Made by a program: the position numbers and the translations under genes. From Chiloscyllium plagiosum (Eukaryota): 64,000 nt of DNA. Location of the stretch: assembly GCF_004010195.1 (NCBI RefSeq), contig NC_057754.1, forward strand, positions 783,318 to 847,317, read 5' to 3'. This document shows positions 8,579 to 60,225 of the stretch, in pieces (position 1 is the first letter of the stretch; each line of letters begins with the position of its first letter). The notes below the pieces were generated by a model. It saw nothing but the letters and a program-made list of their open reading frames with translations. It had not been told where the DNA came from and searched no databases.

Positions 8579-9609
8579 CGAAAAGTGTGATGCTGGAAAA
8601 ACGCAGCAGGTCAGGCAGCATCAGAGGAGGAGGAGAATTGACATAAGCCCTTCAGAAAGATATGTGGGTGGGAGAGCTGGAAGATAAATAGGAGGGTGGG
8701 GATGAGGTAGCTGGGAAGGTGATCGGTAGATACAAGTGGAGTGATGGTGATAGGTGAGAGGGGAGGGGGTTAGAGTGAATAGGTGGGAAGGAAGATGGAC
8801 ATGTAGGACAGTTCAAAAGGGTGGTGCTGAGTTGGAGGGTTGGATCTGGGATAAAGTGGGGGAGGGGAGATGAGGAAACTGCTGAAGTCAATATTGATGC
8901 TGTGTGGTTGGAGGATCCCAAGGCAGATGATGAGGCTTTCTTCCTCCGGGCATCGGGTAACTTGGATTTAGTGGCGAAGGAGGCCCAGGACTTGCATGTC
9001 CTTGACGGAGTGAGAGGGGGAGTTGGAGTGGTTGGCCACAGGGTGGTGTGGTTGTTTGGTGCGTGTGTCCCAAACATGTTCTCTGAAACATTCAATGAGT
9101 TGGCATCCTGTTTCCCCAATGTAGAGGAGACCACATCGAGAGCAACGGACACAGTACATGAGGTGTTTGGATGTGCAGGAAAATCTCTGCTGGATGTGGA
9201 AGGATCCTTTCAGGCCTTGGAAGGAGGTGAGGGTGGAGGTGTGGGCGCAGGTTTTACACGGTATTGACATCGACTTCACCAGTTCCATCTCCCCTCCCCC
9301 CAACTCATCCCAGATCCAATCCTCCAACTCGGCACTGCCCTTTTAAACTGTCCTACCTATCCATCTTCCTTCCCACCTATCTGCTCCACCCTCCCCTCCC
9401 CACTTGTATCTATATATCATTTTCCCAGCTACCTCAACCCCAACCCCACCCTCCAATTTATCCCTCAGCCCACATCTCCACCATTCCTGATGAAGGACTT
9501 ATGCCCGAAACGTTGATTCTCCTGCTCCTCGGATGCTGCCTGACCTGTTGTACTTTTCCACACCTTTTGACTCTGTTCTCCTGCATTTGCAGTCCTCACT
9601 TTCTCCTTC
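8579..9609 (-). mobile_element. Penelope-like element fragment (GIY-YIG endonuclease) with inverted pseudo-LTRs
   Basis: Minus-strand peptide FSCTSKHLMYCVRCSRCGLLYIGETGCQLIECFREH...HPVANHSNSPSH; termini 8580-8800 and 9340-9560 are inverted copies; interrupts an older CR1 tail. Confidence 0.88.
9483..9518 (+). ncRNA. Minimal type-I hammerhead ribozyme motif (core intact, one stem II mismatch)
   Basis: ATTC-CTGATGA-A-GGAC-TTAT-GCCC-GAAA-CG-TT-GATT. Confidence 0.7.
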
Positions 9610-17063: not shown

Positions 17064-18775
17064 CAGAGCGCCGCAGTGTTGGCAGGTCAGTGCTGAGGGA
17101 GTGCTGCAGTGTTGGCAGGTTGGCGCTGAGGGAGCGTCGCACTGTGTCGGAGGATCGGCGCTGAGGTAGCACCGCACAGTATCGGAGGGTCAGCACTGAG
17201 GGAGCGTCCCACTGTGTCGGAGGGTCAACGCTGAGGGAGCATCCCACTGTGTCGGAGGGTCAGCGCAGAGGGGGCGTTGCACTGTGTCATAGTGTCAGCA
17301 CTGAGGGAGCGTTGCACTGTGTCAGAGGGTCAACGCTGAGGGAGCGTTGCACTGTGTCAGAGGGTCAGCGCTGAGGGAGCGTCGCACTGTGTCAGAGGGT
17401 CAGCACTGAGGGAGCGTCGCACTATGTCGGAAGGTCAGCACTGAGGGAGCGTCGCACTGTGTCCGAGGGCCAGTGCTGAGGGGCGTCGCACTGTGTCAGA
17501 GGGTGAGTGCTGAGGGAGTGCCATGCTGTGTCAGAGGGCCAGCGCTGAGGGAGTGCCACACTGTGTCAGAGGGTCAGTGCTAAAGGTGTGTCACACTGTG
17601 TCAGAGGGCCAGCACTGAGGGAGTATCGCAGTGTGTCAGAGGGTCAGCACTGAGGGAGCATCGCAGTGTGTCGGAGGGTCAGCGCAGAGGGGGCATCGCA
17701 GTGTGTCGGAGGGTCAGCGATGAGGGAGCGTCGCAGTGTGTCGGAGGGTCAGCGCAGAGGGGGCATCGCAGTGTGTCGGAGGGTCAGCGCTGAGGGAGCG
17801 TCGCAGTGTGTCGGAGGGTCAGCACTGAGGGAGCATCGCAGTGTGTCGGAGGGTCAGTACTGAGAGGGCATCACACTATGTTGGAGGGTCAGCGCAGAGG
17901 GGGCGTCGCACTGTATCAGAGGGTCAACGCTGAGGGAGCGTTGCACTGTGTCAGAGAGTCAGTGCTGAGGGAGCGTCGCAGTGTGTCGGAGTGTCAGTGC
18001 TGAGGGGGCATCGCACTGTGTCGGAGGGTCAGCGCAGAGGGAGCGTCGCAGTGTGTCGGAGGGTTGGTGCTGAGGGAGCGCCACGCTGTGTTGGAGGGTC
18101 AGCGCTGAGGAAGCACTGCACTGTGTCAGAGGGTCAGTGCAGAGGGAGTACTGCGCTGTGTTGGAAAGTCAGCGCTGAGGGAGCACCATGTTGGTGGGTC
18201 AGCGCTTACGGAGCACTGCACTATGTCAGAGGGTCAGTGCTAAAGGTGTGTCACACTGTGTCAGAGGATCAACACTGAGGGAGTATCGCAGTGTGTCAGA
18301 GGGTCAGTGCTAAGGGAGCATTGCAGTGTGTGAGGTCAGCACTGAGGGAGCATCGCAGTGTGTCAGAGGGTCAGTGCTGAGGGAGCATCGCAGTGTGTCA
18401 GAGGGTCAGCGCTGAGGGAGCACTGCAGTGTGTCGGAGGGTCAGCGCTGAGGGAGCACTACAGTGTGTCGGAGGGTCAGTGCTAAGGGAGCATCGCAGTG
18501 TGTCAGAGGGCCAGTGCTGACAGAGTGTAGCATTGTGTCAGGGGGTCAGCACTGACAGCGCCACACTGTGTCAGAGGGTCAGTGCTGAGGGAGCATCGCA
18601 CTGTGTTCGAGAGTCAGCACTGACGGAGCGCCACACTGCCAGAGGGGCAGTGCTGAGGGAGAGTCAAACTGTTGAAGGGTCAGCGCTGAAGAGCGCTGCA
18701 CTGTGTCAGAGGGTCAGCACTGACAGAACGCCACACTGTGTCAGCGGGTCAGCACTCAGGGAGCGCCGCACTGAT
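17064..18775 (+). repeat. 35-bp minisatellite (~49 units), variant of the 33-bp repeat
   Basis: Unit GGGTCAGCRCTGAGGGAGCRTCGCASTGTGTCRGA; carries an extra TG relative to the 1-740 array. Confidence 0.95.
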
Positions 18776-19065: not shown

Positions 19066-20261
19066 TATCAGCTGCTTACTGTCTACCCTAACTGGTAACT
19101 CACTGTGGCTGTCCTGCCAGCCTGTGTCACGTCGGGGGTGGGGCGAATGTACAGGGGAGTTCGAGAGCTGAGACAGCAAGGAATTAGTGGGTGGTTAGAA
19201 TTTGGGCATTGTCCAGACTGACAATCTTGACTTTGACTCTGTCCAGTCTTCACTGCAGAGGTGCCCTGAGAGTGACCATGAATGCCACAGGTACAGGGTG
19301 AAGGAGGGAGCTTGGATATCAGGCTTTGTCAGAGATGCACTATCTGAGCAATAGTCTCTCCATAACTGAGTGACGAGCTTTTTGAGAGCTGCCTGGACTT
19401 GTGCATTCTGTGTGTGGGTGTGGGAATGTTACTCTGAAATGTTACTGATTCCAGGGAAAGCATTCACTGTCTCCTTTCTTCATATTAAGCTCTCCATAAC
19501 AACCTTCTTTGCCTTGAGACTGTTCCACAGCAGGAGGACATTCAGCCCCTCAGGTCTGTTACACAGGAACAAGAATTAGGCCATTCGGCCCCTCCCTGAG
19601 CCTTTCCCACAGGAATGGGACAAGACCATTCAGCTCCTTCTCAAGCCTGTTCCCCAGTAGAAGGCTATTCAGCTTCCCAAGCCCCATCATTCACTCAGAT
19701 CATGGTTGATCTGTACCTTAACTCCATCTACCAGCCTTGGTCCCAATGACCATTGATCAATCTTAGTTTTAAGATTTTCAATTGACGTCCAGGTTTAAGA
19801 GTATTTTGTGTGTGTTTGGGAGAAGAGAGAGTGTGATAGTGAGTTCTGGATTTCCATTCCCCTGTGTGTGAAGAAATGCTTCCTGGTGTCATTATAGAAA
19901 GGGTTATCTCTGGTTGAAGGTTTTGCCGCCTTGGGCTGTGTTTTGATTGAAAGCTTAAAATGGAGCATGTGTCTGCCCTCTCAGGGGGCGGGGAGGTGGT
20001 GTGAAAGCTCCAATGCCACTATCAGAAGTAGAGCAGGGGGATCTGGAGCCAATATTAATCCCTCAACCAACATCACGATAAACAGATGATCTGGGTCATT
20101 CTCAGATTGCTGTGTGTGGGAGCTTGCTTTGTAAGTCAGCTGTTGTTTCCCCTACATTACCACAGTAACCTGGCAAAGAATAGTATGTTTTATTGGCTGC
20201 AGAGGGATATCGGGCTGGGTGAGATAGTGTGATGGTTAGTCTCTGATTGTCTCCCTGACAG

Positions 20262-20441
20262 AGGACAATGTGTCTGGAGTGAGTGAGTGGGATCACCAGG
20301 ACCACCGGCTTTCAGTGCTTGAACAGAGAGTCCAGCAGCAAGACGATGAGATTACACTGCTTAAATCCGCACTCGCTGATGCCCTCCGTCGCATCTGCTT
20401 CTACGACCAGCACTTCTCACTGCTGGAAGTCAACCAACCCG
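20262..20441 (+). CDS. EML3: EML3 exon: N-terminal trimerization coiled-coil
   Basis: ctgacag|AG GAC AAT...CCC G|gtatgt; (E)DNVSGVSEWDHQDHRLSVLEQRVQQQDDEITLLKSALADALRRI, the EML coiled-coil; 180 nt, phase 1-1. Confidence 0.93.
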
Positions 20442-28406: not shown

Positions 28407-28537
28407 CGTTTATAACTACTACATTTTCTATTAGCTAACTAGTCTTTTATTCATGCCAATATGATTACCCCTGCACCATGAACTTTTATTTTTAGCAACA
28501 ACCTTTCAAATGCCCAGAAGTAGGTTCCTGATAACAT

Positions 28538-31290
28538 GTAGTTGTCATGGGGGACTTCAACTTTCCAAATATTGACTGGGATCACTACAGTACGAGTACT
28601 ATAGATGGGTCAGTTTTTGTCCAGTGTGTGCAGGAGGGCTGCCTGACACAGTATGTAGACAGGCCAACAAGGGGCAAAGCCACATTAGATTTGGTACTGG
28701 GTAATGAGCCTGGCCAGGTGTTAGACTTGGAAGTAGGTGAGCACTTTGGTGATAGCGATCACAATTCTGTTATGTTTACTTTAGTGATAGAAAGGGATAG
28801 GTGTACACCACTGGGCAAGAGTTACAGCTGGGGGAAAGGCAATTACGATGCGATTAGGCAAGATTTAGGAAACATAGGATGGGGAGGGAAACTGCAGGGG
28901 ATGGGCACATTAGAAATGTGGAGCTTATTCAAGGAAAAGCTTCTGACTGTCCTAGATAAGTATCTACCTGTCAGGCATGGAGGAAGCTGTAGAGCGCGGG
29001 AGCCGTGGTTTACGAAGGAAGTGGAATCTCTGGTCTAGAGGAAGAAGGCGGCTTATGTTAGGATGAGATGTGAAGGCTCAGTTAGGGCGCTTGAGGGTTA
29101 CAAGGTAGCCAGGAAAGACCTAAAGAGAGAGCTCAGAAGAGCTAGGAGGAGACATGAGAAGTTGTTGGCGGATAGGATCAGGGTAAGCCCTAAGGCTTTC
29201 TATAGGTATTTAAGGAATAAAAGAATGACGAGAGTAAGATTAGGGCCAATCAAGGATAGTAGTGGGAAGTTGTGTGTGGAGTCAGAGGAGATAGGGGAAG
29301 CACTAAACAAATATTTTTTGACAATATTCACTCTAGAAAACGACAATGTTGTCGAGGAGAATACTGAGATACAGGCTACTAGACTGGGGGTGGGATTGAG
29401 GTTCACAAGGAAGAGGTATTAGAAATCCTGCAGAGTGTGAAAATAGATAAGTCCTCTGGGCCAGATGGGATTTATCCTAGGATCCTCTGGGAAGCCAGGG
29501 AGGAGATCGTCGAGCCTTTGGCATTGGTCTTTAAATCATCATTGTCTACAGGAATAGTGCCAGAAGACTGGAGGGTAGCAAATGTGGTTCGCCTGTTCAA
29601 GAAGGGGAGTAGAAACAACACTGGTAATTTTAGACCAGTTGTTGGTAAAGTGTTGGAAAAGGTTATAAGAGATAGGATTTATAATCATCTAGAAAAGAAT
29701 AATTTGATAGGGATAGTCAGCATGGTTTTGTGAAGGATAGGTTGTGCCTCACAAACCTTATTGAGTTCTTTGAGAAGGTGACCAAACAGGTAGATGAGAG
29801 TAAACTGGTTAATGTAGTGTATATGGATTTCAGCAAGGCGTTCGATAAGTTTCCCCACAGTAGGCTATTGTACAAAATGCGGAAGATTGGGATTGTGGGA
29901 GATATAGCAGTTTGGATCAGTAATTGGCTCGCTGAAAGAAGACAGAGGGTGGTGGTTGATGGGAAATGTTCATCCTGGAGTCCAGTTACTAGTGGTGTAC
30001 CGCAAGGGTCGGTGTTGGGTCCACTAATGTTCGTCATTTTTATAAATGACCTGGATGAGGGCGTAGAAGGGTGGGTTAGTAAATTTGCAGACGACACTAA
30101 GGTCAGTGGAGTTGTGGATAGTGACGAAGCATGTTGTAGGTTACAGAGAGACATAGATAAGCTGCAGAGCTGGGCTGAGAGGTAGCAAATGGAGTTTAAT
30201 GCAGACAAGTGTGAGGTGATTCACTTTGGTCGGAGTAACTTGAATGCAAAGTACTGGGCAAATGGTAAGATTATTGGTAGTGTAGATGAGCAGAGAGATC
30301 TCGGTGTCCATGTACACAGATCCTTGAAAGTTGCCACCCAGGTTGACAGGGTTGTTAAGAAGGCATACAGTGTTTTAGCTTTTATTATTAGAGGGATCGA
30401 GTTCCGGAACCATGAGGTTATGCTAGAGCTGTACAAAACTTTGGTGCGGCTGCACTTGGAGTTTTGCGTACAGTTCTGGTCACTGCATTATAAGGAGGAT
30501 GTGGAAACTTTGGAAAAGGTACAGAGGAGATTTACTAGGATGCTGCCTGGTATGGAGGGGAGGTCTTATGAGGAAAGGCTGAGGGACTTGAGGCTGTTTT
30601 CGTTAGAGAGAAGAAGGTTGAGAGGTGACTTAATAGAGACATATAAGATAATCAGAGGGTTAGATAGGGTGGACAGGGAGAGCCTTTTTCCAAGTGTGGT
30701 GACGGCGAGCACGAGGGGGCATAGCTTTAAATTGAGGGGTGATAGATATAGGACAGATGTCAGAGGTAATTTCTTTACTCAGTAGTAAGGGTATGGAATG
30801 CTTTGCCTGCAACGGTAGTAGATTCGCCAACTTTAAGTACATTTAAGTCGTCATTGGACAAGCATATGGACGTACATGGAATGGTGTAGATTAGATGGGC
30901 TGCAGATTGTGGGCGGCACGGTGGCCCAGTGGTTAGCACTGCTGCCTCACAGCGCCTGTAGACCCGGGTTCAATTCCCGACTCAGGCGACTGACTGTGTG
31001 GAGTTTGCACATTCTCCCCGTGTCTGCGTGGGTTTCCTCCGGGTGCTCCGGTTTCCTCCCACAGTCCAAAGATGTGCGGGTCAGGTGAATTGGCCATGCT
31101 AAATTGCCCGTAGTGTTAGGTTAAAGGGGTAAAGGTAGGGGTATGGGTGGGTTGCGCTTCGGCGGGTCGGTGTGGACTTGTTGGGCCGAAGGGCCTGTTT
31201 CCACACTGTAAGTAATCTAATCTAATCTAAAAGGTCGGCGCAACATTGAGGGCCGAAGGGCCTGTACTGCGCTGTTATGTTCTATGCTAT
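28538..31290 (+). mobile_element. CR1 LINE, 5'-truncated ORF2 (end of endonuclease, RT, 3' UTR), relatively young
   Basis: [47 protein letters not shown]; few frameshifts or stops; TTCTATG tail. Confidence 0.95.
30911..31230 (+). mobile_element. Near-intact HE1 V-SINE nested in the CR1 3' UTR
   Basis: A box TGGCCCAGTGG, B box GGTTCAATTCC (30967-30977), full V-domain, many CpGs retained, (TAATC)3 tail. Confidence 0.95.
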
Positions 31291-31479
31291 CAGGTTAACT
31301 ACTCTGTCAGTCCTTATTTTCTCTCTTTCTGCCTTTCTGAATAGTCATGTTACATTTGCTAAATTCCAGTCACTGGGACTGTTCAGGAATCTGAGAAATT
31401 TTGAAAACGAGAAGCATAATATCCCTGTTGCTGCCTCTTTTCAAACATTAGGATGTAGGCCATAATGGCATGGGGACTT

Positions 31480-34476
31480 AGAATATAGAACATTCCAGCG
31501 CAGTACAGGCCCTTTGGCCCTCGATGTTGCACTGACCTGTGAAACCAATTTGAAGCCTATCTAATTTACACTATTCCATTTTCATCCACATGCCTATCCA
31601 ATGACCATTTAAATGCCCTTAAAGTCGGCACGTCCAACACCTGTGCAGGCAGGCCATTCCACATCCCTACTATTCTCTGAGTAAAGAAAGTACCTCTAAC
31701 ATCTGTCCTATATCTATCACCCCTCAATTTAAAGCTATGTACCCTCATGCTAGCCATCACCATCCGAGGAGAAAGGGTCTCACTGTCCACCCTATCTAAC
31801 CCTCTGATTATCTTCTATGTTTCAATTAAGTCATCTCTCAACCTTCTTCTCTCCAACCAAAACAGCCTCAAATCCCTCAGCCTTTCCTCATAAGACCTTC
31901 CCTCCAGACCAGGCAACATCCTAGTAAATCTCCTCTGAACTCTTTCCAAAGCTTCCACATCCTTCCTATAATGCGGTGACCAGAACTGTACGCAATACTC
32001 CAATGAGGCCGTACCAGAGTTTTATATAGCTGCAGCTTGACCTCATGGTTCCAAAACCCAATCTCTCCACTAATAAAAGCTAACACACCATATGCCTTCT
32101 TAACAGCCCTATCAAGCTGGATGACAAATTTGAGGGATCTATGTACATATACACAGAGATCTCTCTGCTCATCTACACTACCAAGAATCTTACCATTAGC
32201 CCAGTACTCCTTATTCCTGTTGCTCCTTCCAGAGTGAATCACCTCACACTTTTCTGCATAAAACTCCATTTGCCAACTCTCAGCCCAGCTCTGTAGCTTT
32301 TCTATGTCCCTCTTTAAGCCACAACATCCTTCAGCACTATCCACAACTCTACTGACCTTAGTGTCATTCACAAATTTACAAACCAATCCTTCTATGCCCT
32401 CATCTCGGTCATTTATAAAAATAACAAACAGCAATGGCCCCAAAACAGATACTTGCAATACACCATTAGTAACTCCAGGATGAACATTTCCCATCAACCA
32501 CCACCCTCTGTTTTCTTTCTGCTCGCCAATTTCTGATCCAAACCGCTAAATCACCCTCAATCCCATGCCTCCGTTATTATAAATCCTATATCTTATAACC
32601 TTTTTGAACACTTTACCTACAACTGAAGTAAGGCTCACTGGTCTATAATTAGCAGTGTTGTCTCTACTCCCCTTCTTGAACAAGGGGATAACATTTGCTA
32701 TCCTCCAGACCTCTGGCACTATTCCTGTAGACAATGACAACATAAAGATCAATCTCCTCCACTGCTTCGCAGAGAATCTTAGGATAAATCTCATCTGGCC
32801 CAGGGGACTTACCTATTTTCACACTTTCCAGAATTGCTAAAACTTCCTCTTTATGCACCTCAATCCCATCTACTCTAGCAGCCCGTATCTCAGTATTCAT
32901 CTTTTTCCAGTGTGAATACTGATGAAAAATATTCATTTAGCGCCTCCCCTATCTCCTCCGACTCCATGCACCGCTTCCCACTACTATCCTTGATTGGCCC
33001 AAATCTTTCTCTAGTCTTTCTTTTATTCCTGATAAACCTATAGAAAGCCTTAGGATGTTCCTTGATTCTATCTGCCAACAACTTCTCATGTTACCTCCTG
33101 GCTCTTCTTAGCTCTCTCTTTAGGTCTTTCCTGGCTAATTTGTAACTCTCAAGCGCTCTAACTGAGCCTTCACATCTCATCCTAACATAAGTCGTCTTTT
33201 TCCTCTTGACAAGAGCTTCAACTTTAGTAAACCACTGCTCCCTCGCTCAACAACTTTCTCCCTGCCTAACAGGTACATACTTATACAGGACACAAAGTAG
33301 CTGTTCCTTGAATAAACTCCACATTTCAATTGTGCCCATCCCCTGCAGTTTCCTTCCCCAAGCTATGCATCCTAAATCTTGCCTAATTGCATCATAATTG
33401 CCTTTCCCCCAACTATAACTCTTGCCCTGCAGTATATATCTATCACTTTTCATCACTAAAGTAAACATAACTGAATTGTGGTCACTACCACCAAAGTGCT
33501 CACATACCTCCAAATCTAACACCTGGCCTGGTTCATTACACAGTACCAAATTCAATGTGGCCTCGCCCTTTATTGGCCTGTCTACATACTGTGTCAGAAG
33601 ACCTTCCTGCACACAATTGACAAAAACTGATCCATCGAAAGAACTTGAACTATAGTATTCCCAGTCAATATTTGGAAAGTTGAAGTCCCCCATAACAACT
33701 ACCCTGTTACTCTCGCTCCTATCGAGAATCATCTTTGCGATCCTTTTCTCTACATCTCTGGAACTATTCGGAGGCCTCCAGAAAACTCCCAACAGGGTGA
33801 CCTCTCCTTTCCTGTTTCTAACCTTAGTAGATGAGTCCTCAAACGTCCTTTCTGCCCCCGTAATACTGTATTTGATTACTAATGCCACACCTCCTCCTCT
33901 TTTGGCATCTTCTCTGTTCTTACTGAAACATCTAAATCCCAGAACCTGCAACAACCATTCCTGTCCCTGCTTTATCCATGTCTCCGAAATGGCTACAACA
34001 TCGAAACCCCGGGTACCAACCCATGCTGCAAGTTCACCCACCTTATTCCAGATTCTGTCAGTGTTGAAATAGACAAACTTCAAACCAACTTCTTACTTGC
34101 CAGAGTCCCCTTGTGACCTTGAAACCTTATTTCTGACCTCACTACTCTCAACCACCTGTATACTGGAACTACAATTTAGGTTCCCATCCCCCTGCTGAAT
34201 TAGTTTAAACCCTCCCAAAGAGCATTAGCAAATTCCACCCCCAACCCCCCAGAATATTGGTATCCCTCTGGTTCAAGTGAAGACCATCCTGTTTGTAGAG
34301 TCCCACCTACTCCAGAAAGAGTCCCAATTATCGAGGACTCCAAAACGCTCCATCCTGCATCATCCCTGTAGCTACACGTTCAACTCCTCTCTCTCCCTAT
34401 TCCTCACCTCACTACCACGTGGCATGGGCAACAAACCAAAGGTAAATAACTCTGTTTGTTCTAACTCTAAGCTCCT
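31480..34476 (-). mobile_element. CR1 LINE of the same family: ORF1 C-terminus plus most of ORF2
   Basis: APE endonuclease (DVVAISETW, GGGVAL, RPPN, GDFNFP, SDH); RT with an internal deletion near 32575; esterase-like ORF1 end DGLHLNQR...FANALWEGLN at ~34200-34290; splits an older CR1 (ggggactt|gtcagc). Confidence 0.93.
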
Positions 34477-42439: not shown

Positions 42440-45430
42440 GATGCCAAGATAAGGAATTTGTGGAATGTCTACAAGAGATTTTTTTTAAAGCAGACTGTGG
42501 TGGAACCCACCAGAGAACAAGCAATTCTGGATTAGACATGTGTAATGAGGCAAACGTGATTAGGGTGCTGAAGGTGAAGGAACCCTTAGAGGGCAGTGAT
42601 CATAATATGATAGGATTCACCCTACAGTTTGAGAGAGAGAAGCTGGAATCAAACCTGGGTTCCAGGTGCTGTGAGGCAGCAGTGCTAACCACTGAGCCAC
42701 TGTGCCATCTGTAGAATCTGTTAGAATTCTTTGAGGAGGTAACAAGCAAGTTAAACAAAGGAGATCCAATGGATGTGGTCTATTTGGATTTCCGAAAGGT
42801 CTTTGACAAAGTGCTGCACAGGAGGCTGCTAAGTAAAATAAGAGGTGGGAACAAGGTATTGGCATGGGATAGAGTATTGGCTGATTGGCAAAAGGCAGAG
42901 AGTGGCATTAAAGGGGTCATTTTCAGGATGGCAGCCAATGATGAGTTGATTCAGCAGGGCTTAGTATTGGAACCACAACTATTCACATTATACATTAACG
43001 ATCTAGATGAAGGAACTGAGGGCATTGTTGCTAAGTTGGAAAATGACACAAAGGTAGATGGAGGGGCAGGTTGTGTTGAGAAAGCAGGGCGGCTATTTGG
43101 ACATGGACTTGGACATGCAAGAAGAGTGGGCAAAGAAGTGGCAGATGTAATACAGTGTGGGAAAGTGTAAGGTTATGCACTTTGGTAGGAAGAATAGAGA
43201 TGTAGACTATATTCTAAATGGGGAAAGGCTTTGGAAATCCAAACCACAAATGGACTTGGGAGTCCTGGTTCAGGACTGTCTAAAGTTAACATACAGGTTC
43301 AGCTGGGGTTTAGGAGGTCAAATGCAACATTAACATTCTTTTCAAGAGGGCTAGAATACAGAGCAAGGATGTACTGCTGATGGCTGTGTAAAGCTGTGGT
43401 CAGACTGTATTTGTAAATATTGAGAGCAGTCTGGATGTAGGTTTGCTTGCTGAGCTGGAATATTCGTTTTTAGACATTTCGTCACTATACTAAGTAACAT
43501 CTTTAGTGAGCCTCTGAATGAAGCACTGGTGGTGTAGTCCTCTTTCTATTTATATGTTTGAGTTTCCTAGGGTTGGTGATGTCACTTCCTATGGTGACAT
43601 TATTCCCTATGGTGATATCATTTTCTGTTCTTTTTCTCAGGGGGTGGTAAGTAGAATCCAAGTCAATGTGTTTGTTGATAGATTTCTGGTTGGAATGCCA
43701 TGCTTCTAGGAATTCTCATGTGTGTCTCTGTTTGGCTTGTCCTAGAATGGATGTGTTGTCCCAGTCGAAGTGGTGTCTTTTGTCATTTGTATGTAAAGAT
43801 ACTAGTGAGAGAGGGTCATGTCGTTTTGTGGCTAGTTGATGTTCATGTATCCTGGTGGCTAGTTTTCTGCCTGTTTTGTTACTGTTCTTGCTAGGTATTT
43901 TGTAAATGACAGTAGTTTTGCTTGTTATTTGTACGAGGTCTTTCAAGTTCATTAGCTGCTGTTTTACTGTGTTGGTGGGTTTGTGGGCTACCATGATGCC
44001 AAGAGGTCTGAGTAGTCTGGCAGTCATTTCTGAGATGTATTTCATGTAGAGGAGAGTGGCTAGGGTTTCTGGGTGTGTTTTGTCTGCTTGTTTGGGTTTG
44101 TTGCTCAGAAATCAGCAGACTGTGTTCAATGGCACCAGTTCTTTTTGAATACATTGTATAGGTGATTTTCCTCTGCTCTTTGTAGTTCCTCAGTGCTGCA
44201 GTGTGTGGTGGCTCGTTGAAATAATGTTCTATTGCAGCTTCGTTTGTGGATGTTGGGATGATTGCTTCTGTAGTTCAATATTTTGTCCGTATGTGTTGTT
44301 TTCCTGTAGACACTGGTTTGAAGTTGCCCATTGGCTGTTTGCTCTACTGTGACATCTAGGAATGGCAGTTTGTTGTTGTTTTCCTCCTCTTTAGTGAATT
44401 TTATACCAGTAAGGGTATTAATGATGGTCTTGAAGGTTTCCTCTAATTCCTCTAACTCCTCTAACTAACATATAAATAGAAAGCGGGCTACACCACCAGT
44501 GCTTCATTCGGAGGCTCATTGAAAATGTTTCCTAGTATTGTGACGAAATGTCTGAAAACGAACCTTCAAGCTCAGCAAGCAAACCTACAGCCTGAACCTC
44601 AACCTGTGCTACAAATCTTCTCAAAACTCATTGAGAGCAGTTTTGGGCCACGTATCTCAGGAAACTGTGCTGGTATTGAAGAGTATGGCAAGAGGAGGCT
44701 TATAGGAGGGATGAAGGACTGGTCATAGAGGTATGGTTAAGGACTCTGGGTCTATACTCAGTGGAGTTTAGCAGGATGAGGGGCATCTGATTGAAACTTA
44801 GAGGCCTGAATAGAGTGGATGTGGAGAAGATGTATTAGTAGGACAGACTATGACCCAAGGGCACAGCCTTACAATGAAGGAATGACCCTTTACAACTGAG
44901 CTCAGGAGGAATTTCTTCAGCTGGAGTGGTCAATCTGTGGAACTCATTACCACAGAAGGTTGTGGTGGCCTGGTTATCGAGTGTATTTGAGAGAGAGATA
45001 AATAGGTTCTTGATTAGTAATTGTATCAAGGGTTAAGGAGAGAAGGCAGGAGAATGGGGTTGAGAAACCTATCAGCCATGATTAAAGGCAGAGGAGACTT
45101 GATAGGCCCTATAGCCTAATTCTTCACCTTTACCTAATGGTCTTATAGGAGAGAGTGGGACCAGAGGGCAAAATCTCAGAGTAAGGGATCACCAACCAAG
45201 GACAGAGATGAGGAGGATTCCCCCACTCCGAGTGTTTGGATCTGTGGAATTCTTTACCATGGAGCCTGAGTCCTTGAGGATATTCAAGGAAGAGATAGAC
45301 AGATGTTTAATCAGTAAGAGAATCAAAGGTTATGGTGATAAGACAGGAAAATAGGACTTGAGGATTTTAAGATCAGTCACTGTCTCATTGAATGGCAGAG
45401 TATATTAGTCTACTGTTACTTCTACATCTT
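42440..45430 (+). mobile_element. Old CR1 fragments, interrupted by a Penelope element and an HE1 fragment
   Basis: MDVVYLDFRKVFDKVLHRRLL, LFTLYINDLDEG; the ...YCEQFW-like segment is split at 43430/44641. Confidence 0.85.
43431..44629 (-). mobile_element. Penelope-like element (second family) with inverted pLTRs and 12-bp TSD
   Basis: GIY-YIG peptide VIYKIPSKN...TGRKLATRIHEHQLA...HHFDWDNTSIL; 43431-43560 and 44467-44592 are inverted copies; ATTGAGAGCAGT at 43419-43430 and 44630-44641. Confidence 0.92.
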
Positions 45431-46075: not shown

Positions 46076-46412
46076 CATAGCATCCCTACACTGTAGAAGC
46101 AGGCCACTCGGCCCATTGAGTCCACATCATCTCTTCAAACAGCATCTGACCCGGACCCATCCCCGACACTATCCCTCTAACTGCATTTCCCATGGTTAAT
46201 CCACCTAGCCTGCAGAACCCTGGGCCCAAAGGGCAATTTAACATCGCCAGTTCACCTAACCTGCACAACTTTGGACTGCGAAAGGAATCAGATCACTCTG
46301 GGAAATCCCATGCAAACACGGGGAGATCATGCAAACTCCACACAGACAATCACTGGAGGTGGCGCTGTGAGGCAGCAGTGCTAATCACTGACACACTGTG
46401 CTACTGCCACCC
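46076..46412 (-). mobile_element. HE1-type V-SINE (older)
   Basis: gcaaactccacacagaca...gctgtgaggcagcagtgcta reverse-complement signature. Confidence 0.85.
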
Positions 46413-46825
46413 CCCTCCCCCCTCCCCCACAAAGGTTGTGGATTCAAGGCTCACTCTGGAGACATGAATACAAAATCTGGACTGACAGATCCCTGCACTG
46501 TCGGATAGTCAGTGCTGAGGGAGTGCCACACTGTCAGAGAGTCAGTACTGAAGGAGCGCTGCACTGTTGGAGGTTTAGCGCTGAGACAGCACCATACTGT
46601 CAGAGGGTCAGTGCTGAGATAGAACTGCAGTGTCAGAAAGTCAGCAATAAAGGAGCTCCACGCTGTCGGATGGTCTCTATTGCATGATCAGAGGTACTGT
46701 GTTTCAGATGAAACATTAATTTCAGACCCCATTGTCCTCTTGGGTAGGTGTAAAATGTTCCAGAGCCACCACTGGGAGAAGAGCACGAGGTATCTCTCCA
46801 GTGTTCTGGGCCAATATTTTTATGC

Positions 46826-47164
46826 CAGTGGTTAGCACTGCTGCCTCACAGCGCCAGGGACCCGGTTTCGAATCCAGCCTTGGGCGACTGTCTGTGTGGA
46901 GTTCGCACATTCTCCCTGTGTCTGCATGGGTTTCCTCCGGGTACTACGTTTCCTGCCACAAGCCAAAGATGTGCAGGCTAGGTGAATTGGCCATGCTAAC
47001 TGTCCACAGTGTTCAGGAATGTGTAGGTTAGGTGTATTAGTCAGGAGCAATGTAAAGTAATAGGGTAGGGGAATGGGTCTGGGTGGGTTACTCTTCGGAG
47101 GGTTGATGTGGACATGTTGGGTCAAATGGCCTGTTTCCACACTGTAGGGATTCTATTCTATTCT
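46826..47164 (+). mobile_element. HE1-type V-SINE nested in the DeuSINE
   Basis: cagtggttagcactgctgcctcacagcgcc...gggtttcctccgggt...ccacactgtagggattctattctattct. Confidence 0.9.
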
Positions 47165-47192
47165 TAGCAAACATCACCAAATCAACAGACCA

Positions 47193-47421
47193 AATGAAAC
47201 AAAAACTGAAGTTGCTGGAAAAGCTCAGCAGGTCTGGCAGCATCTGTGAAAAGAAATCAGAGTTAACGTTTCGGGTCCAGTGACCCTTCCTCAGAACTGT
47301 ACTGAGGAGGGGTCACTGGACCTGAAGAGTTAGCTGATTTCTCTTCATAGACACTGACAGACCTGCTGAGTTTTTCCAGCAGTTTCTGATTTACAGCATC
47401 TGCAGTTCTTTTTGTTTTCAG
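47193..47421. mobile_element. Palindromic non-autonomous Penelope-type element with back-to-back hammerheads; TSD CAGACCA
   Basis: Arms 47210-47297 and 47301-47385 are reverse complements; CAGACCA at 47186-47192 and 47422-47428. Confidence 0.85.
47261..47298 (-). ncRNA. Minimal type-I hammerhead ribozyme motif, intact
   Basis: Minus strand: AGTT-CTGAGGA-A-GGGTC-ACTG-GACCC-GAAA-CG-TT-AACT (4-bp stem I, 5-bp stem II, palindromic ACGT stem III). Confidence 0.82.
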
Positions 47422-47637
47422 CAGACCATCTGATCTGTTACACGGCTGACTGTGGAGCTTGCTGTGTACAAACTGGTTGCCGCGTTTCCTACATTGTAGT
47501 AGTGACACCGTTTCCAAAGTAAATCATTGTTTGTAAAGGGCTTTAGTTTGTACAGAAAGGTTGAGAGTTGCTGGAAGAAATTGGAGTTTCAATGAACATG
47601 TCACAGGAGTCTCTTAAATTCTCTGGTGCTGTTTCAG

Positions 47638-47789
47638 AAACTTATCAGATTGCCAAACAAACAAAGGCCCACGAGGGCAGTATTTTCACCCTCTGCATCA
47701 TGAGAGATGGCACGCTGCTCAGTGGAGGAGGGAAGGACCGCAAAATCATCCACTGGAACCTGAGCCTTACAACAGATCAAGAAACTGAG
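47638..47789 (+). CDS. EML3: EML3 WD40/TAPE exon
   Basis: (E)TYQIAKQTKAHEGSIFTLCIMRDGTLLSGGGKDRKIIHWNLSLTTDQETE; tttcag / gtgagg; 152 nt. Confidence 0.97.
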
Positions 47790-48570: not shown

Positions 48571-48709
48571 GAGAAAGTGAGGGCTGCAGATGCTGGAGAT
48601 CAGAGCTGAAAATGTGTTGCTGGAAAAGCGCAGCAGGTCAGGCAGCATCCAAGGAACAGGAGAATCGACGTTTCGGGCATATGCCTTTCTTCAGGAATCA
48701 ATTCTGAAT
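48571..48709 (-). mobile_element. Short Penelope-derived insertion with hammerhead and 17-bp TSD
   Basis: TCTGGCTATTGTCCCTG at 48554-48570 and 48710-48726; minus strand 48663-48698 ATTC-CTGAAGA-A-AGGC-ATAT-GCCC-GAAA-CG-TC-GATT. Confidence 0.9.
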
Positions 48710-49759: not shown

Positions 49760-49975
49760 CAAAATATTGTCAATACTGGAAATCCCAAACGTAAACAGAA
49801 TGTTGGAAAAACTCAGCAGGTCTGGCAGCATCTATGGAGAGAGAAAAACAGAGTTAATGTTTCAAGTCCTGTATGACTGTTCCTTAGGATAGTTCTGAAG
49901 AGTCATGTCAACTCAAAATGTGAACGTATTCTCTCTCTACTGCTGAGTTTCTCCAGCATTCTCTGTGTTTGTTTC
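49760..49975. mobile_element. Older palindromic Penelope-type element, degenerate hammerheads
   Basis: ggaaaaactcagcaggtctggcagcatct...ctgctgagtttctccagca inverted arms, similar to 47193-47421. Confidence 0.75.
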
Positions 49976-50652
49976 TTATTCTGGCACAACCGAGCTGGCA
50001 TTGAACCTGCTCCCTGGTGGGTGTCCTTCTCCAGGTTATGTCAATTGCCTGACTGATCAGAGATTGGGATAGTGCTGAGAAGAAAGCCGCCAGACTTGCT
50101 CTGGCTACCGTTTCTGTGGGTAACCTCACAACAGGATGCATGCTCCCTCTTGTGGTAGAATTGTTACAGAACGGAGGGAGGCCATTTAATCCATCATGTT
50201 TGTGCCAGTCGGCCTAAGGATCAATTCAGGTAGTGCCCCCCCTTCCCATCCTTCTCCTCAAGTACCCCTCTTCAGAAATTTAGAATGTTTCCAGAAAGAG
50301 GCTAGTTTGTCCAGCATGGCCAAGAAACAAGCCACTTTGTCAAAACTATTTCCCAGCACTTGGTTCGTGTCATGGATGCTACAGTCCTGAGTTTCCACTA
50401 TTCAAATTACGTAGAGCACTGAATGAATTTTTCCCTAAAGGCTGCCCAAATGCTTGGCAAAATTCAAGGGGTGATCAGTTGAAGAAGTAGCACTATCCTG
50501 ATAGGTAGAATGGACAGATTTGACAAAGAGCTATTCCACCAATGAAAGGTTGGCTCTCACTGCACTTTGAAAGTATTTAAATATGTATTTAGGGACATGG
50601 TGAGGCTCCTACTGCATGGCCTGTACATTTAATAGTTTCACTAATTCCCCAG

Positions 50653-50764: not shown

Positions 50765-52860
50765 CTGCACCAATGGACATCAGAAGATCATGCATTCTGA
50801 TGACGGGCCTCAATGTGCAGAAGACAATTTTAAAGTTTATGAATGACATGAAATTTAAAGCATTGGAAATAGTGAGGAGGACAGTGACAAGTTGGTGGAG
50901 TGGGTGGATGTGTGACATGTGGAATTCAATATCCAGAGGTGTGGGGTGATGCATTTTATATACACTTCAACTCAGTATAGGAACAGGCCCTTTGGCCCAC
51001 CAAGTCTGCACCAGTTCCTAGTCCTTATTTGTACCTGCTACTTATTGCCTATGCACAGTTTCTATCCCTCTGTTTGTCTACTGTTCATGTGTCTATCAAA
51101 GTACACTTTAAACATTGATAATATGCCTGCTTCCACCACCACCACTGGCAGTGCGTTCCAGACACCCACCCCGCATGTCTCCCCTAAACCTTCTCCTTCT
51201 CACCTTGAACCTGTGCCCTCTTGTAGTTGACCTTTCTATCCTGGGGAAAAAGCCTTTGACTATCTAACCTATCTATGCTCCTCATAATTTTGTAGACCTC
51301 TATCAGGCTCAGACTCCATCTTTCCAGTGAAAACAATCCAAGTTTATCCAAACTCTCCTCATAATTAAAACCATCCAGACCAGGCAACATTCTGATAAAC
51401 CTTCTCTGCGTTCTCTCCAAGGTATCCTGTTGGTAGGGTGACAACCAGAACTGCACAAAATATTCCAAATGTGGCTTAACAGAAGTTTTGTACAGCAATA
51501 ACATAATTTGCTGACTTTTATAGTTGATGCCCTTGCCAATGAAGGCAAGTGTGCTGTATGCTTTCATAACCACCTTATCCAGCAGTTGCCACTTTCAGGG
51601 ATCTGTGGACATGTTTGCCCAATGTCAATGCTCCAAAGTGTTCTGCCATATATTGTGTAATTTACACCTGAATTTGATCTTCCAAAATGCATCACCTCAC
51701 ATTTGTCCAAATTAAACTCCATCTACTGTTTTTCTGCCCAAGTCTACAATCTATCTATATCCCACAGTATCCTTTGACAATCCTCCTGATTATCTGCAAC
51801 TCCACCAATTTTGATATTAATCAGACCACCTACTTTTTTGCACCAGATCATTTATATATATTACAAACAACAAAGGTCCCAGCACTGACCCTACTGTCTT
51901 GTCTACCTTTAATGAATTTAAAGACACCCACCACTTCCTCCTTCATTATGTTGTGGAGGTACCAGTGTTGGACTGGGGTGGACAAAGTTAAAAATCACAC
52001 AACACCAGCTTCCTGATGAAGGAGCCAAAAGCTAGTATTTCCAGGTAGAGCTGTTGGACTATAACCTGGTGTTGTGTGATTTTAACTTCATTATGTTGAT
52101 CTGACTTTGGTAGAAAGAACTTTGAAAGACAATACATTAGGAGATACAATTCTAAAAAGGGGTGCTGGAGCAGAGGGACTTGGCTGTATATGTGCACAGA
52201 TCATCAAAGGTAGCAGAACTGATAGGGAGAGCAGTTGATAATAGAGTATCCTCAGCATTACTAATAGGAGCATAGAGTTCAAGATCCGGTAATGCTGAAC
52301 TTGTATAAGACACTTGTTAGACCTCAATTGGAGTATTGTGTACAGCTCTGGGTGCTACATTATGAGATGGATGTGTACACTTTGGAGAAAGGGTGGAAGA
52401 GATTTACAAGAATGGTTCAACGAATGAGAAACTTCAGCTATATATGTAGACAGGAGAGGTTGGTTCTCCTTGGAGAGAAGAAGGCTAAGAGGAGATCTGA
52501 TAGGGGTTTTCAAAATTATGAAGGAACTGAATAGAGTAGATGGGGGAAAAAGTGTTCCTGTTAGTAAAAGGAACAGGGGACAGACACTTAAAATGATTTG
52601 CAAAAGAAGCAAATGTGCTGAGGGGAAAAAGAAACACTTTTTTGCACAAGTGGTTAAGGTCCGGAATACACTGCCCGGAAGTGTGGTGAAGGTAGGTATA
52701 ATTGAGGCATTCAAGAGGGCATTGGACACTTAAATAAAAACAATGTAAAACGAATAAGGGAAAGTTAGGAGGATGGGACTAAGTCATGATGTTTGTTTGT
52801 TGGAGAGCCAGTGCAGACACAGTGGGCCAAATGGCAGCCTTCTATGCCTTGACATTTCTG
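50765..52860. mobile_element. Plus-strand CR1 3' fragment split by a minus-strand CR1 (~50960-51895) and a short element
   Basis: MEFNIQRCGVMHF ... [17 protein letters not shown] on +; KPHLEYFVQFWLSPY on -. Confidence 0.85.
51954..52085. mobile_element. Short Penelope-type element (AGCT hammerhead family), 13-bp TSD
   Basis: CTTCATTATGTTG at 51941-51953 and 52086-52098; CTGATGAAGGAGC...AAAGCTAG with stem II deleted. Confidence 0.8.
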
Positions 52861-56444: not shown

Positions 56445-56672
56445 AGAGAAATAAAAAGAGAAATTGCTGGAAAAACTCAGCAGGTCTGGCAGTATCTGTA
56501 GAAAGGAATTAGTGTTTATGTTTCAGGTCCAGTGACTTTTCTTCAGTATGTGGGGTTCTGATGAAGGATCGCTGGACCCAAAACATTAACTCTGATTTCT
56601 GTCCACAGATGCTGTCAAACTTGTTGAGTTTTCTAATTTCCAGCATCCACAGTGCTTTCGGTTCTTTTTGTT
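56445..56672. mobile_element. Palindromic Penelope-type element ~20 nt after an exon donor
   Basis: Same family as 47193; + arm GTT-CTGATGA-A-GGATC-GCTG-GACCC-AAAA-CA-TT-AAC (G12 mutated). Confidence 0.8.
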
Positions 56673-58466
56673 CAGTTGTGGTGAGTGTTTCTTTGCAATT
56701 TCAGCATCACAAAACACTGGGTGGATCCCCCCAACCAGATCCCAAACTGCTTCATCCTTCCTCCAGATCACAGCTGATTTATGACTCAACATCACTTGAC
56801 TTTGCTTCATAATCTTCTAATGGCCCTTGTCTATCAAAAATCAGTGATGAAAATACCCAAAGCCTTTTGGAGTCCAGAAGTTCTAGACTTTCAAAACTAT
56901 TTATGAGAGAGAGGTTTGTTCCGTGATTTCTCTAGAACGCTAATTGATGAGAACAAGCACCCAGTATGACGCTTTCATCCTGTCAATGTGAGAGCAGGAC
57001 AGATCATTTCAAGAATGAGATAGCCAAGCACGGAAGGGTTTAGTGGACTAATGGCACAACATTGTTGAGTATTAGGATCCGCACCATCCATCTCTCTCTT
57101 GCTCTCTGTCTGTCTGCATACAGAGAGTCTGTGTGGGAAGAAGCCAGTTGGCAGTGATATTCATGCAGGCTACTGCCCAAAAGCAGCGCCTGCCACACGC
57201 AGAATTGAGAAAGAGCCAGAAAGGGAAATGTTTGGATGACCACAGAAGATGCCTTTCCTGTTTTGCTTATGTGGTGGAAACAGATTTTAATCCAGGTGCT
57301 GTGAGGAGATGCCTGAGGTGTCCTTCCACATATTAACCAAAGCAGCTTTGTAAAGGGAAGTGGGTACCCAATTCACATTCACCCACTGTCCCACCCCGCC
57401 CTCCACTACAGCCACCATTGGGCACCAGTACTGTGTAACAAACAGCAGGGACAGATAGCACTGCAATAGGGTTGGACTGTGACGCCTTCCAATGTTGAAT
57501 AAGGGTCTGGGTCTGTACATATCAAATGGTACTGGATATTAAAGGTACCATGGGTGGCCAGTTCCTGTGCAACTGTGCCAGGGTCAGAACGGAGCCTTTG
57601 AGAAGCAGAATAAAAAGCTGCATTGAAACATTACAAACCACTTCTCTTCTGTGGCTGGATGCACTATAATGATCACTGTGATCATTTCTGAGCCGTGTGG
57701 GGAAAGGCAGACAGCAGCCTGGGCTATTTAAATACAGGCATAGAGTAGAAAAGCCAGAATTTATGTTAAGCCTTTCTAAGTCACTGTATTAGACTTCAGT
57801 GAGAGTATTGGATCTAAAATTTTGTTCATTATTCATTGAGTGTTTATGACTAGGCCCACCCCTTAAGAATAACCACATTGCTTTGGGTATGGAGTCACAG
57901 GTAGACCAGACTGGATAAGGACAGCAGATTTCATTCCTTCAAAGACATTAGTGACACCAGGGTTTTACGTCAATTCACCCTGGTTACATGCTAACCATTA
58001 GATCAGTTTTTAACATTACACAATTTTGTTGAATTCAAATTTTACCAGCTGGGATTTTAATCTCTGCCCCCCAGAATACAACCAAGGTCTCTGGATTACT
58101 AGTCCAGTGACATTAATACCACGCTGCCACTTCTCAATTCTGGACCCCACCCTTTTGGTAGGATTTTGAAACTTCAGAGGGTACGGAGGAAATCTGTTAA
58201 AATAGGACCACGGTTGAAAGATTTTTATGAATGTGGAAAGACCAGAGAAGTGGAATTGTTCTCCTTAAAGCACAGAGAGTTAAATGGGAGATCTGACCAA
58301 TGCTACACTGGAATACATTTCTTAATTTCCATCAACAAGTTGATTTGGTTTTAATGTAACTGCATTTGGTGCCTGCAGAGGGTAGTACTGAGCTTCTCCC
58401 TTATTCCTAACACTGCCCCACGCAGGCACTCTGTGTTATTACTGTGTTTTGGCCTGGTTACCTAAT

Positions 58467-58563
58467 TCTGGATCAGTGGTGCTGGAAGAGCACAGCAGTT
58501 CAGGCAGCATCCAAGGAGCTTCGAAATCGACGTTTCGGGCAAAAGCCCTTCGTCAGGAATAAA
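58467..58563 (-). mobile_element. ~100-bp Penelope-derived insertion, TSD ACCTAAT
   Basis: ACCTAAT at 58460-58466 and 58564-58570; CpGs retained. Confidence 0.88.
58525..58560 (-). ncRNA. Minimal type-I hammerhead ribozyme motif, intact core and stem II
   Basis: Minus strand: ATTC-CTGACGA-A-GGGC-TTTT-GCCC-GAAA-CG-TC-GATT; GUC cleavage triplet ending at 58529. Confidence 0.8.
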
Positions 58564-58742
58564 ACCTAATGTCTTGGCTTCCTGGACAGGATATTCGGTT
58601 GCAATAAGCCAGTTTGGATGTCACTATTTTATGTGACATAGGGAAGTTGTTGTTAGTGAAATGTGACTCATCCAGAACTACCTGTATTGATATGGTACCT
58701 GATAATGCAGCACAGTGTTCCAATGTGCTGGATATAAAAGGA

Positions 58743-58941
58743 CAATGTGGAGGAGCCAGTGTTGGACTGGTGTGGACAAAGTTAAAAATCACATAACACC
58801 AGATTATAGCCCAACAGGTTTATTTGGAAGCACTAGCTTTTGGAACGCTATCCTTCGTCTGATGAAGGAGCAGCACTCCAAAAGCTAGTGCTTCTAAATA
58901 AACCTTTTGGATTATAACCCTGGTGTTGTGTGATTTTTCAC
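58743..58941. mobile_element. Palindromic Penelope-type element (AGCT hammerhead family)
   Basis: Inverted arms aaaaatcac...cactagcttt / aaagctagtg...gtgattttt; CTGATGA-A-GGAGC-AGC-ACTCC-AAAA-GC-TA at 58859-58887; imperfect TSD GATATAAA(A)GGA. Confidence 0.82.
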
Positions 58942-59433: not shown

Positions 59434-59607
59434 TTCGAGATTGTGGTGCTGGAAAAGCACAGCAGGTTAGGCAGGATCTAAGGAGGAGGAGAGTCGACAT
59501 TACAGGCAAAAGCTCTTCTTCAGGATGGCTCCTCAGATGCTGCTGTTGTGCTGTTGTGCTTTTCCAGCACCACACTCTCGACTCTAATCTGCAGTCCTCA
59601 CTTTCAC
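59434..59607. mobile_element. Short inverted Penelope-derived insertion
   Basis: gtggtgctggaaaagcac / gtgctttccagcaccac arms; CTGG(T/C)AATCATCA duplicated at 59421-59433 and 59608-59620. Confidence 0.8.
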
Positions 59608-60225
59608 CTGGCAATCATCAGTAACTAGTGCATTTTACAAGCAACATCCCTACCAATCAGAGTCCACTTTATCAACTAATCAGCACTCTCCTCTTATACA
59701 ATAAATATTATTTTTCCCATTTCATTGGTTTACTTGGGATTGGTCCTGATGAGCACAAGATGAAAAACTTTGAGAAAAGTATATTTTTCAGCAATACTAA
59801 CATTCTGTTCTACCAAACAGCTATTTGAGTGACCTGCTCAGTGATGCTCTGTTTGGGTTCTGTCAGAGCCACACACCTCATTTGTAGCCTTGGCTGAAAC
59901 ATTATCAATAGAGCTAAACTTTAGACATGAGGTGGTAGTGACTGTCCTTGTGTTTGACCAAGTCTTTCATTAAGGAACACAATAAAAATTGGAGTCAGTG
60001 GGAATCAGGGGAAAATTTTCTGCTGGTTGTAGTCATACTTGGCATAAAGAAAGATGGTTGTGGTTTTTTGGACATCAGTCATCTCAGCTCCAGGACATCT
60101 GCACAGATGTTCCTCAGGGTACTGTCCTAGACCCAACCATCTTCAGTTGCTTCATTAGTAATCTTGCTGATGATTGCTGGTAATTGGCAAATAACGTGCA
60201 CTATGCAAGTGCCAGACATGACTGT

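Follow-up and report, generated by a model that had tools for sequence, protein, structure and literature searches.

A short head-to-head Penelope-like fold-back with one intact-looking hammerhead in an intron of an EML-like gene: a probable by-product of integration

Introduction

Insertions of endonuclease-bearing Penelope-like elements (EN+ PLEs) have been described with an inverted pLTR, a 31-bp tail, TSDs of 8–10 bp, and head-to-head palindromes (PMC3846280). The elements have internal TATA-less promoters with an initiator (PMC2377424), and in Drosophila an intron ends at helix I of the hammerhead and transcription starts 46 nt ahead of that intron (PMC2377424; PMC4209133). Dual minimal hammerheads lying on opposite strands, 100–700 bp apart, were reported in 2014 and noted in Schistosoma (PMC4209133); sharks are not named in the available text of that paper. 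In vitro work on Poseidon of Anolis indicated that both target strands are cut and extended, that two internal start sites for reverse transcription bound the tail, that the enzyme is predicted to act as a dimer, and that uncleaved RNA serves as the template (PMC11167929). As far as the available text of each goes, both PMC3846280 and PMC11167929 leave open how inverted ends are formed. Non-LTR retrozymes have also been reported in one chondrichthyan (bioRxiv 10.64898/2026.07.22.740005).

We analyzed a 64,000-nucleotide stretch of the Chiloscyllium plagiosum genome, referred to here as the window, in which a unit of this kind lies at 47193–47421. It resembles the complex insertions of EN+ PLEs (PMC3846280; PMC8557442 Fig. 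2) in having inverted, 5′-truncated pLTR ends placed head to head, a palindromic junction, and an arm length that varies between copies. Those insertions have a tail of 30–40 bp and a short TSD; here there is a 34-nt tail at one end and a 7-bp TSD. Unlike them, the present unit has no ORF or direct pLTR, its arms are only 106–123 nt long, and in most arms the sequence begins at the hammerhead's 5′ edge. The motif itself is like the minimal hammerheads of PLEs in its 4-bp helix I, the unpaired base between positions 9 and 10.1, the G10.1–C11.1 pair, and the palindromic positions 15.2–16.2 with no helix III (PMC4209133). It differs from the motifs described in the available part of that paper in that helix II is 5 bp here and 7–8 bp there, and from the dual motifs in that the two copies are adjacent, with cores 8 nt apart. 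As with Poseidon in vitro, two 3′ ends differing by the tail are seen and the whole uncleaved hammerhead was copied; PMC11167929, in its available text, is silent on the 5′ junction and on inversions, and the sister family B found here has a CxxCxxC linker of the Neptune type.

The unit shares with non-LTR retrozymes a non-coding sequence, a PLE derivation, and a type I hammerhead (bioRxiv 10.64898/2026.07.22.740005). Retrozymes form head-to-tail tandems that allow cleavage as a dimer, whereas the head-to-head arrangement here prevents it. We considered classification as a non-LTR retrozyme and rejected it: such an element has at least two head-to-tail units with complete hammerheads, and this locus has one intact motif. 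The anatomy is thus already in print, and the locus is a real but ordinary example of it; as a single locus it carries little weight, being one among very many such stubs. Searches of the literature outside subscription journals, Repbase/Dfam, and supplements gave no account of such short fold-backs in sharks or of arms that end at the transcription start.

Structure of the element

The initial annotation had described an insertion of about 230 bp with the TSD CAGACCA. The element was found as 229 bp between exact 7-bp duplicates, CAGACCA at 47186–47192 and again at 47422–47428 (plus strand), which sit precisely at its two ends; exact repeats of at least 7 occurred in 6% of 3000 random window pairs of equal search size. 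Arm 1 (47193–47298, minus strand) is a short pLTR end of a Penelope-like element without a tail. It starts 4 nt ahead of the hammerhead core, and its sequence is close to the family majority. Arm 2 (47299–47387, plus strand) mirrors this pLTR end; its hammerhead is decayed, and about 10 nt have been lost ahead of the 34-nt tail (47388–47421, plus strand). The two arms are therefore unequal, the minus arm lacking the tail that the plus arm carries. In aligned contigs the sequence of this tail is the main loose end of family copies past 47196.

The arms differ at 17 of 95 aligned columns and by a 2-nt gap. The long inverted repeat proposed earlier is present, but its center is not at 47299: the fold-back axis is a single unpaired T at 47298, where the 5′ ends of both arms meet head to head. 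Minimum free energies for the two strands were −138.7 and −128.8 kcal/mol, each for one hairpin (z = −16.4 and −14.9), and for each strand none of 200 shuffles was equally stable. The predicted hairpin has 92 pairs, with a longest unbroken helix of 29 bp, and in the fold the outer ends are able to pair over about 10 bp. Folding of both strands thus supports the earlier suggestion that a transcript would form a long hairpin.

Hammerhead motifs

A strict motif scan located a minimal type I hammerhead on the minus strand at 47261–47298. It reads AGTT-CTGAGGA-A-GGGTC-ACTG-GACCC-GAAA-CG-TT-AACT, and the core CUGANGA...GAAA...UH and stems I and II are intact in the minus arm only. Stem I is formed by 47298–47295 and 47264–47261, followed by CUGAGGA (47294–47288), the unpaired A at 47287, stem II (47286–47282 with 47277–47273), and GAAA (47272–47269); a palindromic ACGU takes the place of stem III, and H17 is at 47265, with the predicted cleavage site directly after it. 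The letters are as originally read, and the motif was the sole strict match on both strands of the 64 kb, with no match in any of 10 shuffled sequences. In a relaxed scan the other match with zero mismatches was at 58556, 11 kb away. The Rfam search gave two matches with E values up to 1, neither of them a ribozyme, and no hammerhead match at the element, as expected for a motif without stem III. Both CpG sites of the minus arm are retained along with its core, each CpG position having been lost in 30–37% of the aligned copies.

Alignment of the arms confirmed that the plus-arm copy is damaged. Its core has lesions at 47327 and 47328 and its stem I at 47301 and 47333, in addition to the 2-nt gap.

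With respect to strand, the two hammerheads with no core mismatch in the relaxed scan (47294 and 58556, both minus) are antisense to the host gene described below. The plus-strand arms within the gene (47302, 49893, 56558, and 58859) are broken; in two the lesion is at the CpG preceding GAAA. The plus-strand motif at 9487 has an intact core. These numbers are too small to call selection.

Related copies in the window

The window contains seven fold-backs belonging to three families. Family A comprises the element itself, an older fold-back at 49762–49985 in which both hammerheads have decayed and the tail is on the left arm, and one at 56445–56680 with a central spacer of about 5 nt and the tail on the right arm. 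Family C is represented at 51954–52085 (very unequal arms, 13-bp TSD, left-arm tail) and at 58739–58941 (center within the core, 8-bp TSD, left-arm tail). Family B, which is 72% identical to family A over 87 nt (E = 1.8e-5), has a fold-back at 59434–59612 in which the right arm starts downstream of the hammerhead (8-bp TSD, right-arm tail), and a much longer one at 8587–9600. Four solo copies of family B, at 6.7, 12.5, 48.6, and 58.5 kb, were also found. The fold-backs noted earlier at 49760, 56445, and 58743 do exist; the last belongs to another sequence family, BLAST from the 47193–47421 element giving no match at 58743. Those at 8587–9600, 51954–52085, and 59434–59612 are additional to that list.

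The fold-back at 8587–9600 repeats the geometry of the unit at 47.2 kb, its unequal arms measuring about 670 and 340 nt. A broken frame on the minus arm includes a CxxCxxC linker and a YIGET motif; the top Atlas cluster for this frame scored 0.96, and GIY-YIG is found in 18% of the members of that cluster. Pfam gave no family for the 96-aa GIY-YIG-like fragment, which by its CxxCxxC linker resembles the Neptune type. The plus arm holds a 3′ UTR, a tail, and the hammerhead at 9487, which has one stem II mismatch. No ORF of family A itself was seen in the 64-kb window, so that the protein link runs through family B, and no RT domain was seen in the families of the window. The loose end past 47299 in aligned copies resembles the family B 3′ UTR at 15 of 18 letters.

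Read by eye, the tail was on exactly one arm in all seven fold-backs, an outcome of 1 in 128 if arms took the tail independently at even odds, and both arms always belonged to a single family. Ten insertions were examined for TSDs, the copy at 6.7 kb lying outside this set: six had exact TSDs, of 7, 7, 8, 8, 13, and 17 bp, and the other four (8.6, 12.5, 49.8, and 56.4 kb) had no clear one. The centers varied, from a shared base (47.2 kb) through a direct join (49.8 kb) and a spacer of about 5 nt (56.4 kb) to a center inside the core (58.7 kb); the second arm starts 37 nt downstream at 59.4 kb and 61 nt downstream at 52.0 kb, and the arms at 8.6 kb are long.

Two of the solo family B copies deserve description. 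The copy at 48571–48709 has a 17-bp TSD and an apparent 9-nt inverted mini-arm at its 5′ end, which looks like an aborted second arm. The copy at 58467–58563 has a 7-bp TSD, the intact core on the minus strand, and three extra T residues before its start, and it lacks a tail.

Family copies in sequencing runs

Four sequencing runs were aligned to the stretch at 80% likeness, standing in for an alignment of genome-wide copies. From genomic run X1, 77,450 contigs aligned, many of them matching just a 30-nt word common to family B. The last arm 1 bin was covered to a depth of 580,293, the center bin to 62,560, and the first arm 2 bin to 3,404, a drop of about 170-fold from the first arm to the second. 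Counted by site, depth fell from 304,132 at 47290 to 4,080 at 47301, or 1.3%. At 47296–47299, 4,106 contigs left the alignment with mixed flanks (agreement 0.33–0.43). About 110 contigs were counted at 47301, and 7 of the 8 pieces listed crossed the center, with 0, 1, 4, 5, 5, 5, and 18 gap letters. Among the joints listed (15 out of 466, along with 24 out of 920 loose ends), those running from arm to arm fell at many places. Because assembly graphs collapse young perfect palindromes and the aligner favors the better-kept arm, the depth drop overstates the rarity of fold-backs. Even so, fold-backs are a minority of the family copies, and their joints are variable.

Since most of the aligned family copies stop at the center, the palindrome is made anew each time. 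The question raised at the outset, whether the center is fixed or variable, is thus answered in favor of variable, both by the fold-backs of the window and by the copies ending at the center. These results support the conclusion that the palindrome is re-created at each insertion and is a by-product rather than a mobile unit or a MITE. We rejected a MITE on its structure as well: the TSD is not fixed and short, the terminal inverted repeats are not symmetric, and no one full-length structure recurs. The TSDs ranged from 7 to 17 bp and the tail was one-sided.

No empty site was found among the 15 of 466 joints listed, and the left junction had no coverage. The right junction was present in X1, which may be the source sample, and in run X5, with one difference in each. 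In run X15, which has another organism label, the exon next to the element was covered and the intron flanks were not.

Origin of the palindrome

We conclude, with a probability of roughly 0.87, that the element is a dead-on-arrival insertion of an endonuclease-bearing Penelope-like retroelement and that its palindrome is a by-product of integration. The proposal that it is an inverted-pLTR product of Penelope integration is upheld by the one-sided tail in all seven fold-backs and by the variable TSDs and centers. In the sequence of events that we favor, a GIY-YIG domain would have cut both intron strands with a 7-nt stagger, the TSD being observed and the enzyme inferred. Reverse transcriptase would then have copied only the last 105–135 nt of the pLTR inward from each side, one copy beginning at the near and the other at the far internal start site, which would leave the tail on a single arm. 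The two short copies would have been joined at their 5′ ends. Here the pattern is what we observed; the copying steps are modeled on the in vitro work in PMC11167929. Because both arms hold a whole hammerhead, the templates would have been uncleaved RNA.

The decay of the arms is uneven. With majority letters taken from the aligned contigs, 11 of 14 assignable arm differences lay on the plus arm (two-sided P = 0.057), the count leaving out the center column, one column at the edge of the deletion, and one swamped by family B reads. Four of the 11 changes on the plus arm (47299–47392) were A to G; we rejected these as ADAR marks, since they are too few to set apart from ordinary transitions. 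Such uneven decay sits poorly with a single event from one template, and two templates, later conversion, or chance could account for it.

Other explanations were weighed against this origin. The uneven decay (11 vs. 3) might instead mean that the arms are two separate insertions, a younger solo copy having entered at the 5′ edge of an older one, or that one arm was converted later. PLEs are said to insert beside earlier copies (PMC6765202, in its available text), and the arms are hardly more similar to each other (0.80) than arm 1 is to the arm at 56.4 kb (0.79). Against this, a single TSD surrounds the whole unit and none lies inside it, each unit holds one family in 7 of 7 cases even though three families are mixed in the window, the arms have two minority-leaning letters in common (47290/47306 and 47249/47345), and the asymmetry of decay is not significant; we consider two events improbable. 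Slightly less probable still, and largely refuted, is movement of the entire palindrome as a fixed non-autonomous unit, whether MITE-like or a palindromic mini-PLE. The pairing of the outer ends over about 10 bp, the center-crossing pieces in X1 (two of the seven with 0 or 1 gap letters), the roughly 110 contigs at 47301, and the centers of the three family A units, which fall within a few bases of one another, would all suit such a unit. It is contradicted by ends that are unequal, with a tail on one arm; by TSDs of 7–17 bp; by the family A tails, one of which is on the left and two on the right; by the fall in X1 depth to 1.3% between 47290 and 47301; and by the 4–18 gap letters in the other five spanning pieces, along with the scatter of the joints listed.

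A different alternative concerns the step that makes the inversion rather than the identity of the element. The inverted arm may have arisen by self-priming on an antisense template (PMC3846280, in its available part), both arms being copied within the same event, and we regard this as a possibility of some substance, well short of an even chance. It would account for the head-to-head orientation, the near-perfect palindrome at the junction, and the single family on both arms, and it agrees with the solo copy at 48.7 kb, whose 5′ end has a 9-nt mini-arm. Self-priming alone leaves unexplained the restriction of the tail to a single arm in 7 of 7 fold-backs, and also the central spacers and unequal starts. 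Finally, the locus might have been co-opted, the minus hammerhead cleaving an antisense RNA or the hairpin regulating the host pre-mRNA through editing or small RNAs. The core and both CpG sites have survived where 30–37% of aligned copies lost each, and a hairpin of 92 pairs with a 29-bp unbroken helix lies inside an expressed gene. By computation the motif is unable to fold in its context, however, and even alone the double hammerhead is the less stable form (−16.1 vs. −24.0); several like hairpins occur in the same gene, and among thousands of copies some would be expected to retain an intact core. Co-option therefore seems very unlikely.

5′ edges of the arms

The 5′ starts of 18 arms and solo copies in the window were taken from BLAST, except that one arm whose 5′ end lay outside its BLAST match (the right arm at 49 kb) was placed by eye. 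Twelve fell between −6 and +2 of the first base of the core, one was at +6, two were further downstream, and three were long; if truncation were uniform over 250 nt, about 0.65 of the 18 starts would be expected in this 9-nt interval. Two sources of such ends were considered and rejected. Ribozyme cleavage would act about 30 nt further 3′, and a 3′ splice site would require an AG, which is present in family A and absent in family B, and the arms include the AG.

At −4 in the long family B copy is the A of CCATTCC. For family A, the loose-end consensus past 47299 was TCAGTTC at the same place, as had been predicted beforehand (agreement 0.43–0.5). The initiator pattern is YYANWYY, which occurs at 1.2% of window positions and fits both sequences. 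The fit is weak, because the letters of stem I are given and just two pyrimidines are new.

We tentatively suggest, as one reading with well under an even chance, that the short arms are run-off cDNAs reaching the 5′ end of the RNA and that transcription starts at the A four bases before the core. A dimeric RT–endonuclease would prime on both strands of the target with sense RNA as the template, its two subunits occupying one internal start site each, and the products would be joined. If this is true, stem I begins at the cap, and no antisense template is needed to explain together why the 5′ edge is fixed, the tail one-sided, and the geometry head-to-head. The thousands of stubs would then be a genomic read-out of the unsolved second-strand step in Penelope integration. 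The tight 5′ edge and the one-sided tail together offer a cheap genome-scale test of how inverted ends form.

Hammerhead folding and activity

We computed the share of molecules that would adopt the hammerhead fold, taken as stems I and II paired around an open core. This share was 0.1 when the motif was folded by itself, 0.03 when the arm was, and 7.7e-25 in the entire element. In folds of growing transcript prefixes the site was already paired when it emerged. In a minus-strand transcript the antisense arm comes first, so that the hairpin would outcompete the hammerhead and bury the motif; by these calculations the native transcript is unable to adopt the hammerhead fold. A nested double-hammerhead form scored −16.1, the best two-strand fold −24.0, and two monomers −18.0. 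In the available text of PMC4209133, minimal motifs did not cleave as single units and cleaved little as dimers, and by analogy the minus-arm hammerhead would require a dimer partner. The Anolis motif cleaved only with protein and was dispensable for insertion (PMC11167929, in its available text).

The host pre-mRNA carries the broken plus arm in sense. The claim that a transcript from either strand carries one hammerhead is thus not borne out: the plus core is broken, and the minus motif is predicted to be buried. The minus-arm hammerhead is intact in sequence and, in the model, cannot fold within the hairpin, and it has no tandem partner. Since the plus ribozyme is broken and the minus one is predicted to be unfoldable and without such a partner, the ribozyme stub at this locus is probably inactive, and the locus today is most likely an inert intronic hairpin. 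When a unit is head to head, a hammerhead that looks intact should not be taken for an active one, because its own mirror silences it.

RNA run X21, of which about 2 in 100 was covered, gave 1586 aligned reads, 6 of them at 99% or higher, and an exon depth of at most 2. There was no pile-up of molecule ends in this run, the library and depth being too weak to show cleavage, and at 80% likeness other copies mask editing in it. Use of the predicted hairpin by ADAR or Dicer is possible, and it could be edited as could any intronic inverted repeat.

Host gene and neighboring sequence

The element lies in an intron of a plus-strand gene encoding an EML-like WD40 protein, ahead of the exon at 47638–47789, which has AG/GT borders. 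The best PDB match of this exon was EML1 (4ci8, E = 7.7e-15), and in run X5 contig depth was 936 in the exon vs. 6 in the intron. A coiled-coil exon at 20240–20440 resembles the N-terminus of an EML-like gene (weak Pfam coiled-coil match); if it is that N-terminus, the gene spans at least 20–58 kb on the plus strand.

Two SINE-like repeat copies in opposite orientation, at 46238–46393 and 46823–47165, are presumably of the shark HE1/V-SINE type. The second ends in ATTCT repeats 30 bp ahead of the element, and the pair is a second possible double-stranded region in the same intron. An inverted pair unrelated to families A–C lies at 31232–31538, its 54-nt arms 89% identical and 199 nt apart. Broken LINE-type frames with endonuclease and reverse transcriptase fragments, which we take to be CR1-like, are found in introns at 11258–12616, 28535–34092, and 42715–43170. 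An array of units of about 35 nt, in both orientations, occupies 17300–18750.
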